In this document: positions 36,093 through 38,316 of the stretch, one piece after another
How the letters are laid out: every line of letters begins with the position of its first letter
How positions within the stretch are numbered: the stretch's first letter is position 1
NCBI RefSeq assembly: GCF_044647545.1
Contig: NZ_CP172818.1
Source of the DNA: Escherichia coli
Lineage (GTDB): Bacteria > Pseudomonadota > Gammaproteobacteria > Enterobacterales > Enterobacteriaceae
Strand: one strand, 5' to 3'
DNA length: 64,000 nucleotides
The notes under the pieces: model-generated
Databases searched by the model: none
What the model was told of the DNA's origin: nothing
What the model saw: only the letters and a program-made list of their open reading frames with translations
Made by a program: the position numbers and the translations under genes

Positions 36093-36129
36093 GCCGGATG
36101 CGGCGTGAACGCCTTATTATCCGGCCTAC
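36093..36129. repeat. REP (repetitive extragenic palindromic) element between wzc and wcaA
   Basis: gccggatgcggcgtgaacgccttattatccggcctac matches the REP consensus; a second partial palindrome lies at 36136-36168. Confidence 0.7.
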
Positions 36130-36153
36130 GGGGCGGTGCGAATGCAGGCGTCG

Positions 36154-38316
36154 TTATTTCGCATCCGACTTATATTCGTATTCGTAATAGCCATAATCCT
36201 GATACGCGCTGGCGCGGCGGAAGATGGAGTTCAGAATCACCCCTTTCACCGGAATACCGTTTTGCTCAAAGCGGCTCAGACTGGTTTCCACTTCTTTCAA
36301 TGTGTTGACCGCATAACGCGCCACCATTAATGTGGTTCCGACATGACGACCAACAATTGCCGCATCGGTCACTGCCAGAATCGGCGGCGTATCAATCAAC
36401 ACCAGGTCGTAGTTTTTACTCGCCCACTTCACCAGTTCGGCAAAGCGTTCGCTCATTAACAGTTCAGAAGGATTTGGCGGCACCTGACCGCGCGGGATCA
36501 GGTCAAATTTGGCAATAGAGGTCGGTTTAGCAGCGGTAGTAATATCGCCCTGTCCAATCAGAATTTCCGACAGGCCATTAACGTTATTAGTGCCCAACAG
36601 CTCGTGGGTGTAGCCTTTGCGCATATCGCAGTCGATCAACAACACCCGTTTATTGGTCTGGCTAATCACCGCCGCCAGGTTGGCGCAGACAAAGGTTTTA
36701 CCGATTGACGGGCTAACCCCGGTCATCATCAACACATTCTTCTGCGCCTGCATCATCGCGAAGTGCAGACTGGTACGCAGACTGCGGATGGCTTCAATCG
36801 CCAGATCGGTTGGATTCCCCACCGCCAGTAGCTGGCTCTGTTTATAGCGTTTAATCCCTTTGATGGTTTTGACGCTATCGCGCGCTTTCTGCCATTCCGA
36901 CAACGGGATGCTGGCATAGACACTGATACCGTGTTCTTCCAGCACCTGCGGGCTTTCGATGCCGCGATTAAACAACGAGCGCAGCAGCACACCCACGATA
37001 GAGAGCATCAGGCCAAGGATAATCGCGCCGAGGATAATCAGCCCTTTCTTCGGTTTTAGCACGCCAGGCTGGGTGATTGCCGGGTCAACAATGCGCACAT
37101 CGCCGACGGTGCTGGCTTCGGTGATTTTCAGCTCCTGCTCTTTATTCAGCAGTTGCATATAGACCTGTTGACCAGACTCGACATCGCGGGTCAGACGGAC
37201 AATTTCCTGCTGGGTTTTCGGCATCGCCGTTACGCGACCGTTAAGTTTGGCTTTTTCGTCTTCCAGCGCCTGCCGTTTCTCCAGCAGCGTGCGATACGCC
37301 GGGTGAACTTTGGTGTACAGCTTGGAGATTTCCGCTTCTTTAAAGGTCAGTTCGTTCAACTGCGCGTCGATGTTCACCATCGAATCGAGCACCGCTTTCG
37401 CTTCCAGCGGCAGATCAACTGAATCTTTATCCTGACGGAAGGTATTCAGTTTGTTTTCGGCAACATCAAGGCGGTTACGTACTTCCGGTAACTGTTGCGC
37501 GAGGAAAGCGAGGCTTTTCGACGCTTCCGCCGATTTGCGCTCAATATTTTGTTCCTGATAGTTACGAGCGATGCTGTTAAGAATGTCGCGGATCTGTTCG
37601 CGATCTTCACCGGTATAAGTCAGGCTCAGTACACCTGCGTCTTTGCCGTTCTCCGTTACCGTCAGGCTGTTTTGCAGTTGATTGATCATCCCCAGCGTGG
37701 AGTATTTGGTGACGGTAAACTCACTGCCCGGGCTGGCGTGAATGGCTTCAACCATCAGCGTGACGCCTTCTTTTTTCAGCATCTGGCCCGCTTGCCCACG
37801 GGCGCTAAAGCCGCCATCGCTGATCAGGGTGTAGTTTTTGTTGTCCAGCACATTAAGCGTAAACACCTGATCCGCCATCTCTTTCGGGCGGTTAAAGGTG
37901 GTCACTTTTACCGTCTCGTTCTGGCGTCCCATCAGGCGATCCCAGCCCGCACCGAAAATCGGGAACGTGTTTTTGCTCACTGCAATATCGAGGTCGAGAT
38001 CGTCCACCGTTTTACCAAGCACCAGACGCGAACGAATCAACTGGATCTCGGCGTCCGATGCAGGCGGTTTGTTGGCTAATGCCGATCCGATATCCTGCAC
38101 TAACGAATTGCCGCTGCTTTGCTCGATTTGTACCAGTGCGTCGGCGCTATAAATCGGCGTGGCAAAGAAGGTGTAAACCACGGCACAGAGGGCGAATACG
38201 GCGGTGATGCCAATCACCCACCAGCGCGCTTCAATGACGGTGCCGACCAGGCGACCAATATCGATTTCATCACTGCCCGTTACCGGAGCGGCATGTTGTT
38301 TTACTTTTTCTGTCAT
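36154..38316 (-). CDS. wzc: Tyrosine autokinase Wzc (polysaccharide co-polymerase), 720 aa
   Basis: ORF 36154-38352; start placed at MTEKVKQHAAPVTG to match known length; Walker A (GVSPSIGKT) and C-terminal Tyr-rich tail YGYYEYEYKSDAK. Confidence 0.9.
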   Translation of the reverse strand: MTEKVKQHAAPVTGSDEIDIGRLVGTVIEARWWVIGITAVFALCAVVYTFFATPIYSADALVQIEQSSGNSLVQDIGSALANKPPASDAEIQLIRSRLVLGKTVDDLDLDIAVSKNTFPIFGAGWDRLMGRQNETVKVTTFNRPKEMADQVFTLNVLDNKNYTLISDGGFSARGQAGQMLKKEGVTLMVEAIHASPGSEFTVTKYSTLGMINQLQNSLTVTENGKDAGVLSLTYTGEDREQIRDILNSIARNYQEQNIERKSAEASKSLAFLAQQLPEVRNRLDVAENKLNTFRQDKDSVDLPLEAKAVLDSMVNIDAQLNELTFKEAEISKLYTKVHPAYRTLLEKRQALEDEKAKLNGRVTAMPKTQQEIVRLTRDVESGQQVYMQLLNKEQELKITEASTVGDVRIVDPAITQPGVLKPKKGLIILGAIILGLMLSIVGVLLRSLFNRGIESPQVLEEHGISVYASIPLSEWQKARDSVKTIKGIKRYKQSQLLAVGNPTDLAIEAIRSLRTSLHFAMMQAQKNVLMMTGVSPSIGKTFVCANLAAVISQTNKRVLLIDCDMRKGYTHELLGTNNVNGLSEILIGQGDITTAAKPTSIAKFDLIPRGQVPPNPSELLMSERFAELVKWASKNYDLVLIDTPPILAVTDAAIVGRHVGTTLMVARYAVNTLKEVETSLSRFEQNGIPVKGVILNSIFRRASAYQDYGYYEYEYKSDAK

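Follow-up and report, generated by a model that had tools for sequence, protein, structure and literature searches.

Among the closest described relatives of the element considered here are the REP (repetitive extragenic palindromic) elements of malE-malF and hisJ-hisQ (Newbury 1987 and Stern 1988, cited in PMC3158064 and PMC6061677) and REP325 in yjdMN, which acts both as a partial Rho-dependent terminator and as a stabilizer of the upstream message (bioRxiv 10.64898/2026.03.23.713779). According to the same study, REP-containing tandem gene pairs display upstream-biased expression throughout the genome. Moreover, Rho-dependent 3' ends are protected by REPs and similar stem-loops (PMC6061677), and attenuation has been attributed to bacterial interspersed mosaic elements (BIMEs; Espeli 2001, cited in PMC6061677). 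For the colanic acid operon of Escherichia coli, REPs of 34–36 bp have been found in the wcaA-wzc intergenic region, where conservation extended to every O157 and non-O157 strain examined (Iguchi et al. 2011, PMC3158064), and a "stem-loop transcriptional attenuator immediately after wzc" has been stated to exist (PMC2516531), as it has for the Klebsiella cps cluster (PMC3438125). In the present analysis, this junction was followed in a 64-kb stretch of an E. coli chromosome (hereafter the window), which carries the colanic acid operon on its minus strand and a y-type REP between wzc and wcaA.

A y-type REP in the wzc-wcaA spacer

REPs of E. coli are defined as imperfect palindromes of 30–40 nt with a GTAG 5' of the foot, unpaired bases within the stem and an extragenic location (PMC3333891). 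The palindrome in the wzc-wcaA spacer, which reads gccggatgcggcgtgaacgccttattatccggcctac on the plus strand (36093–36129), is 37 nt long and consists of a 7-bp and a 4-bp stem split by an internal loop. The GTAG foot is situated at 36129–36126 of the minus strand (CTAC on the plus strand), and the copy lies between two genes. Folded as RNA, the hairpin reaches −19.0 kcal/mol with a z score of −3.1, a stability equalled by none of the shuffled sequences (0 of 200). REPs are furthermore expected in hundreds of copies per genome. Here this property was assigned from the number of places occupied by the 36-nt K-12 form, together with its extragenic position: the K-12 form is present in 5425 of 5426 complete E. 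coli genomes with a median of at least 40 near-exact places per genome (at least 40 such places in 2917 records), and its listed matches overlap no annotated feature. Rfam contains no general REP family. Its sole REP-derived model, naRNA4, which was built from REP325, matches the element with 29.9 bits (E = 0.0013), below the gathering score of 59.5. Far beyond chance, the element is thus one copy of the E. coli y-type REP, and the palindrome that a first, sequence-only reading of the window had placed in the spacer is confirmed by its foot, fold and high copy number.

The same reading had called this REP canonical, which is correct as to type. In the strict sense it is not, since the window carries a minority allele in which a 3-nt tandem duplication widens the internal loop. 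The duplication is absent from K-12, lengthens the spacer from 92 to 95 bp and weakens the hairpin (−19.0 kcal/mol versus −21.6 kcal/mol for the K-12 form). The exact 102-nt spacer variant containing it was found in about 110 genomes, compared with 2690 in the short allele class as a whole; the variant is real but rare. Due to this duplication, and not to absence of a REP, the consensus scan that had been proposed as a check found nothing: no match to a 34-mer occurred in the window even with 3 mismatches allowed. The K-12 MG1655 record NC_000913.3 lists no feature in the wzc-wcaA spacer, which is uninformative as regards absence of a REP, since the yaaX-yaaA gap, presumably the site of an annotated REP, is equally devoid of features in that record. 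On the opposite strand, the duplication creates the −10 hexamer of a promoter-like pair (TTGCCG-18-TATTAT, 9/12, 36091–36120, plus strand). This pair is probably due to chance, as the region had 3 such sites versus 6.1 expected.

Elsewhere in the window, a short z-like REP (GCCTGATGCGACGTATCAGGCCTAC) is located at 49703–49727 of the plus strand, and weaker matches to a REP head occur at 120–132, 15699–15711, 45598–45618 and 46599–46611. In total, 7 REP-head-like matches were found in the whole window versus 2.7 expected.

According to the list of open reading frames (ORFs), the operon genes are arranged in the order wza, wzb, wzc, wcaA, wcaB onward, and in RefSeq genomes near-identical DNA bears these gene names (Table 1). 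The stop codon of wzc (TAA, 36156–36154) and the start codon of wcaA (ATG, 36058–36056), the latter preceded by the Shine-Dalgarno sequence GGGAG at 36071–36067, delimit a spacer of exactly the length claimed beforehand. From wza to wcaI this is the only gap of more than 26 bp in the ORF list, so that the REP indeed lies within a single operon, as had been proposed, and one that is tightly packed. In the proximal part of the colanic acid operon, wzc-wcaA is the one junction that is not coupled, and it separates the genes for export and control (wza-wzb-wzc) from the polymer-specific genes (wcaA onward). In front of wza, the JUMPstart element with its ops sequence represents the RfaH loading site of the operon.

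Table 1. Features at and around the wzc-wcaA junction, in window coordinates
Feature	Position	Strand	Basis
JUMPstart element with ops GGCGGTAG (~40097–40090), upstream of wza	40086–40124	-	Rfam RF01707, 57.3 bits versus gathering score 35
wza	38768–39907	-	ORF list
wzc (tyrosine autokinase; upstream gene)	36154–38316	-	ORF list and RefSeq annotation of DNA with the same or nearly the same sequence
Last wzc codons GUCGGAUGCG (Ser-Asp-Ala region of the terminal KSDAK-stop), 5' arm of the predicted 10-bp helix	36160–36169	-	Fold prediction
Second partial palindrome of the sequence-only reading, 6-bp stem UGCGAA/UUCGCA	36137–36163	-	Sequence
wzc-wcaA intercistronic spacer, 95 bp	36059–36153	-	ORF ends
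y-type REP, 37 nt, mRNA sense 5'-GTAGGCCGGATAATAAGGCGTTCACGCCGCATCCGGC-3'	36093–36129	-	Sequence, hairpin fold, copy number, Rfam
3-nt tandem duplication (TTA/TAT) in the REP internal loop	36114–36120	.	Alignment with DH10B
wcaA (glycosyltransferase; downstream gene)	35219–36058	-	ORF list, annotation and sequence

Predicted pairing between the REP and the 3' end of wzc

In addition to the REP, a second partial palindrome had been noticed, and both had been assigned to the interval 36093–36168. The REP and the adjoining spacer part of this interval stand, but 36154–36168 is coding sequence of wzc. The sequence repeats of the second palindrome do exist: TGCGAA (36163–36158) and TTCGCA (36142–36137) flank a 15-nt loop with the wzc stop codon inside, and a further 8-nt inverted repeat joins 36095–36102 and 36160–36167. 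However, when 36130–36170 is folded alone, a z score of only −0.68 is obtained and 47 of 200 shuffles fold as well, by which an independent hairpin or second REP is ruled out. Likewise, the REP-head-like stretch GTCGGATGCG (36169–36160) is not derived from a REP, since it is present in Cedecea, whose spacer comprises 19 bp and is free of REPs; the wzc end AAGTCGGATGCTAAATAA, also found there, is ancestral. In the main, the second palindrome consists of the conserved last wzc codons (K-S-D-A-K), which are predicted to pair with the 3' arm of the REP. Only the portion GCCTGCATTCGCA may represent the decayed head of a z-type inverted REP (iREP), a likeness judged by eye. Because the REP-head-like part is wzc coding sequence, conserved in species lacking REPs, the adjacent inverted second REP that characterizes a BIME is missing from the window, where the upstream segment by itself does not fold better than its shuffles would lead one to expect.

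For the whole region, a minimum free energy of −38.3 kcal/mol (z = −2.9) is predicted. In free RNA, the last wzc codons and the perfectly complementary REP 3' arm (36102–36093) are predicted to join in a long-range helix of 10 bp, whose pair probability is 0.99, as against 0.006 for the stem of the canonical REP. This composite fold, a thermodynamic prediction for ribosome-free RNA, places the wzc stop codon in an internal loop with the 10-bp helix on one side and a 7-bp helix on the other. When a terminating ribosome is mimicked by blocking the last wzc codons together with the stop codon and 12 nt beyond it, the canonical REP hairpin is predicted instead. The 92- and 128-bp alleles of the spacer, described below, are predicted to contain this long-range helix as well, and all E. 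coli spacer alleles fold strongly (z = −2.95 to −5.35).

The enclosed stop codon could be taken to indicate control at the level of translation, with structure at or after the wzc stop stalling terminating ribosomes and lowering the output of Wzc. A REP that lies no more than about 15 nt from a stop codon reportedly lowers translation of the upstream gene (Liang, Rudd and Deutscher 2015). The 128- and 177-bp alleles, in which a full z-like hairpin begins 11 nt past the wzc stop, could be compatible with such an effect. The 95-bp allele is a poor fit, since its REP follows the stop codon at a distance of 24 nt (GTAG) to 28 nt (stem), and the fold that encloses the stop codon is a prediction for ribosome-free RNA. 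Translational control of Wzc is hence considered the least probable of the explanations weighed here.

On the operon strand, the spacer (36059–36153) yielded no site resembling a terminator or a promoter. The hairpin is followed on its 3' side by AAGCAAACCAGC and lacks a U-tract. An intrinsic, Rho-independent terminator and an internal promoter serving the operon were both rejected on these grounds.

Variation of the junction in E. coli and other Enterobacteriaceae

In the sample of 5426 complete E. coli genomes, the wzc-wcaA junction was matched by megablast in 4748. The other 678 presumably lack the colanic acid locus or have replaced it. Four spacer lengths were distinguished: 92 bp, which is found in K-12 and O157 and makes up most of the short class, the 95 bp of the present window, 128 bp as in UTI89 and 177 bp as in WP9-S17-ESBL-11. 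The short class comprises about 2690 genomes (~57%) and the long class, formed by the last two lengths, about 2025 (~43%). In the 128- and 177-bp alleles, the complete z-like inverted REP next to wzc is followed by half or whole y REPs, so that an inverted second REP is present and both alleles are BIME-like. The 128-bp allele looks like the 177-bp allele after deletion of 49 bp between direct repeats. Variation of BIME copies from strain to strain at a fixed locus is typical (PMC3333891). A further length difference within the operon was observed between wcaD and wcaE, where the gap of UTI89 measures 80 bp (L089 8566–8645) versus 10 bp in K-12, O157 and WP9; the insert (…GGGTGAGCGAGGAAAACCAACGCACATGCAGCTTGAAGTATGACGGGTAT) is one that we take to resemble an ERIC/IRU fragment.

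The allele class does not follow the divergence of the flanking DNA. In wza-wzc, the window with its 95-bp spacer differs by 1.6% from UTI89 (128 bp) and by 2.2% from K-12 (92 bp), which hints at an old polymorphism or at recurrent rearrangement. The same independence could speak for a role at the level of DNA, with the REP serving as a binding site of the gyrase, Pol I or IHF type or as a recombination junction that aids exchange of the O-antigen/colanic acid region. Such activities of REPs have been listed, and REPs near the O-antigen locus have been proposed to coincide with recombination break points (PMC3158064). In the five strains compared in 500-nt bins, however, divergence was similar upstream (1.6–2.35%) and downstream (1.7–2.95%) of the spacer, without a step, and a recombination junction was rejected for these strains. 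Gyrase binding is linked to tandem BIME-2 arrays, but the short allele consists of a single REP. A function of the element as DNA is accordingly regarded as improbable.

The comparison was extended by a scan with WcaA to 80 loci from different Enterobacteriaceae species, 79 of which could be compared at wzc-wcaA. While the neighbouring junctions are fixed, with gaps of −4 to +2 bp at wzb-wzc (72 species), −1 to +3 bp at wcaA-wcaB (76 species) and −4 bp in all 76 species at wcaB-wcaC, the wzc-wcaA gap ranges from 19 to 353 bp. In 68 of the 79 species it contains palindromic inserts, and 59 of these 68 fold with z ≤ −2. The inserts belong to at least two unrelated repeat families. E. coli, Citrobacter and Salmonella have REPs of the E. 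coli type, oriented one way or the other, whereas Enterobacter, Lelliottia, Kosakonia, Phytobacter and others have nested CCCTC...GAGGG palindromes of another family; some further types of insert also exist. It can be concluded that the wzc-wcaA junction is a hot spot for palindromic repeats. In about 45 of the 79 species, the spacer holds one to five nested palindromes of the form CCCTCACCC..CCCTCTCCC..GGGAGAGGG..GGGTGAGGG, a repeat family distinct from the E. coli REP, which extend to 353 bp and −206 kcal/mol (for example the spacers L066 2142–2494, L036 2144–2488 and L029 2190–2488).

The main and serious rival to any function of the REP is that of neutral, selfish DNA, according to which REPs and their relatives accumulate in the sole non-coupled junction of this part of the operon and affect expression too little for selection. 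Spacers of 19–34 bp lacking any hairpin in 11 of the 79 species, the unequal REP content of the four E. coli length alleles and the changes of repeat family and orientation among genera are all in line with it. The same holds for the gain and loss of REPs in the cpsG-cpsB and wcaK-wzxC gaps of the same cluster (PMC3158064) and for BIME copy numbers at a locus, which are known to differ by strain (PMC3333891). On the other hand, at least one complete REP-type hairpin is kept in each of the approximately 4715 E. coli genomes with an intact junction, the structured inserts recur at exactly this junction in most species, and the wcaA-wzc REP differed from the other REPs of the cluster in being conserved across every strain studied (PMC3158064). 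Furthermore, an mRNA structure of −19 to −38 kcal/mol is expected to alter decay on physical grounds, as seen for REP325 (bioRxiv 10.64898/2026.03.23.713779). Taken together, a neutral repeat is a real possibility, although one to which we give less weight than to an effect on the transcript.

Several further RNA elements were detected in the window. A second JUMPstart (16005–16043, minus strand, 60.0 bits) follows galF and precedes the O-antigen genes. An algC RNA motif (25648–25697, minus strand; Rfam RF02929, 78.2 bits versus a gathering score of 33.8) fills the 100-bp cpsB-cpsG spacer, the operon's other large gap, which immediately precedes the gene for phosphomannomutase; in some strains this spacer holds REPs (PMC3158064). 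On the plus strand, a tandem pair of SIB antitoxin RNAs (55577–55726 and 55913–56055; RF00113, 147.5 and 136.8 bits) marks two Sib/Ibs type I toxin-antitoxin loci.

Possible effect on the colanic acid transcript and comparison with known systems

The reading preferred here, held with a probability of roughly 55%, is that the REP serves as an exonuclease barrier and weak attenuator, which would raise the wza-wzb-wzc message relative to the distal genes while RfaH-carrying polymerase reads through. Once transcribed, the REP would form a stable GC-rich structure without a U-tract, with its 3' edge at 36093. With a ribosome on the wzc stop codon this would be the canonical hairpin (−19 kcal/mol), and in ribosome-free RNA the more extensive composite (−38 kcal/mol), which draws the REP 3' arm into pairing with the last wzc codons. 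By blocking 3'-to-5' exonucleases, either form would allow the wza-wzb-wzc message to outlive the distal message. The structure would in addition act as a weak, partly Rho-dependent attenuator, as distinct from an intrinsic terminator, through which polymerase loaded with RfaH at the ops site of the JUMPstart would largely pass. The net result would be an excess of export and kinase message over glycosyltransferase message. Whereas identity, position, predicted structure and population variation of the REP were obtained from the present sequences, the expected effect on RNA is drawn from other REPs and from the stem-loop found after wzc in capsule clusters.

A number of points weigh against this role. 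The size of the effect on transcripts could be negligible, and number, type and orientation of the repeats vary among E. coli alleles and among genera, as expected of selfish elements. The hairpin-free short spacers, which occur in Cedecea, Leclercia, Silvania, Pseudescherichia vulneris and a few others, imply that the hairpin is not required for colanic acid synthesis. The attenuator remark in PMC2516531 rests on a review and not on a direct experiment with colanic acid. In addition, wzb, wzc and wcaA change jointly in rcs mutants by quantitative PCR (PMC3673037), which points to co-transcription and does not reveal a step, although the values are fold changes and not absolute levels. Text searches of the literature yielded nothing direct that ties wzc/wcaA to terminators, Rho or RfaH, and the RepRanger supplements contain no mention of the wzc-wcaA locus.

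A more far-reaching proposal, which appears doubtful, is that the spacer, through its natural variation, acts as a dial on expression of the Wzc kinase, with the alleles setting the ratios of Wzc, Wza and glycosyltransferases. In these alleles, a REP-type hairpin lies either 11 nt (128 and 177 bp, ~43%) or 24–28 nt (92 and 95 bp, ~57%) past the wzc stop. As the end of wzc is predicted to pair with a REP arm in most alleles, the structure that arises would depend on translation of wzc, and chain length or amount of colanic acid could differ without any change in protein or promoter.

Beyond correct annotation, the significance of the element is slight, since both the REP in this spacer (PMC3158064) and an attenuator after wzc (PMC2516531) have already been published; the allele series and the pairing with the coding end are small additions. 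What is gained is a view, across the E. coli population and across species, of a palindrome hot spot beside frozen neighbours, a series of alleles that offers a ready natural experiment on the tuning of intra-operon polarity by REPs, and the reassignment of the supposed second palindrome to the coding sequence of wzc.

Comparison with the known systems reveals that the REP of Iguchi et al. 2011 (PMC3158064) is the same element at the same locus. That study deals with recombination and not with RNA, and includes neither the series of 92, 95, 128 and 177 bp nor the 3-nt duplication or the pairing with the wzc 3' end. The BIMEs (PMC3333891) are resembled by the 128- and 177-bp alleles, in which a z-like iREP is followed by a y-REP in tail-to-tail arrangement and the copy content varies among strains. 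The window allele, in contrast, possesses one intact REP only, and its upstream partner is at best a decayed remnant together with coding sequence.

Like the REPs of malE-malF and hisJ-hisQ and REP325, the wzc-wcaA element is situated between co-transcribed genes and forms a hairpin without a U-tract, and upstream-biased expression is expected of it. Those cases have been examined by experiment, whereas the present one is known from its sequence; REP325 is moreover a multi-copy array and the window holds a single REP. Unlike all three, the colanic acid operon is additionally subject to antitermination by ops and RfaH. This latter feature is shared with the group 1 and Klebsiella capsule clusters, where the attenuator likewise follows directly after wzc, at the border between export and polymer-specific genes of an operon controlled by JUMPstart and RfaH. 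A stem-loop attenuator downstream of wzc was reportedly described for the E. coli group 1 (K30) capsule by Rahn and Whitfield in 2003. The capsule attenuators are described as stem-loops resembling Rho-independent terminators, whereas the wzc-wcaA hairpin belongs to a genome-wide repeat. By its position right after wzc, its stable fold and the JUMPstart/ops in front of the operon, the junction nevertheless corresponds to the arrangement of a post-wzc attenuator. A role of the REP in stabilizing the upstream message and altering the ratio to the distal genes would thus agree with the published intra-operon REPs, namely REP325 and REP-stabilized 3' ends, as well as with the attenuator remark for the site after wzc.

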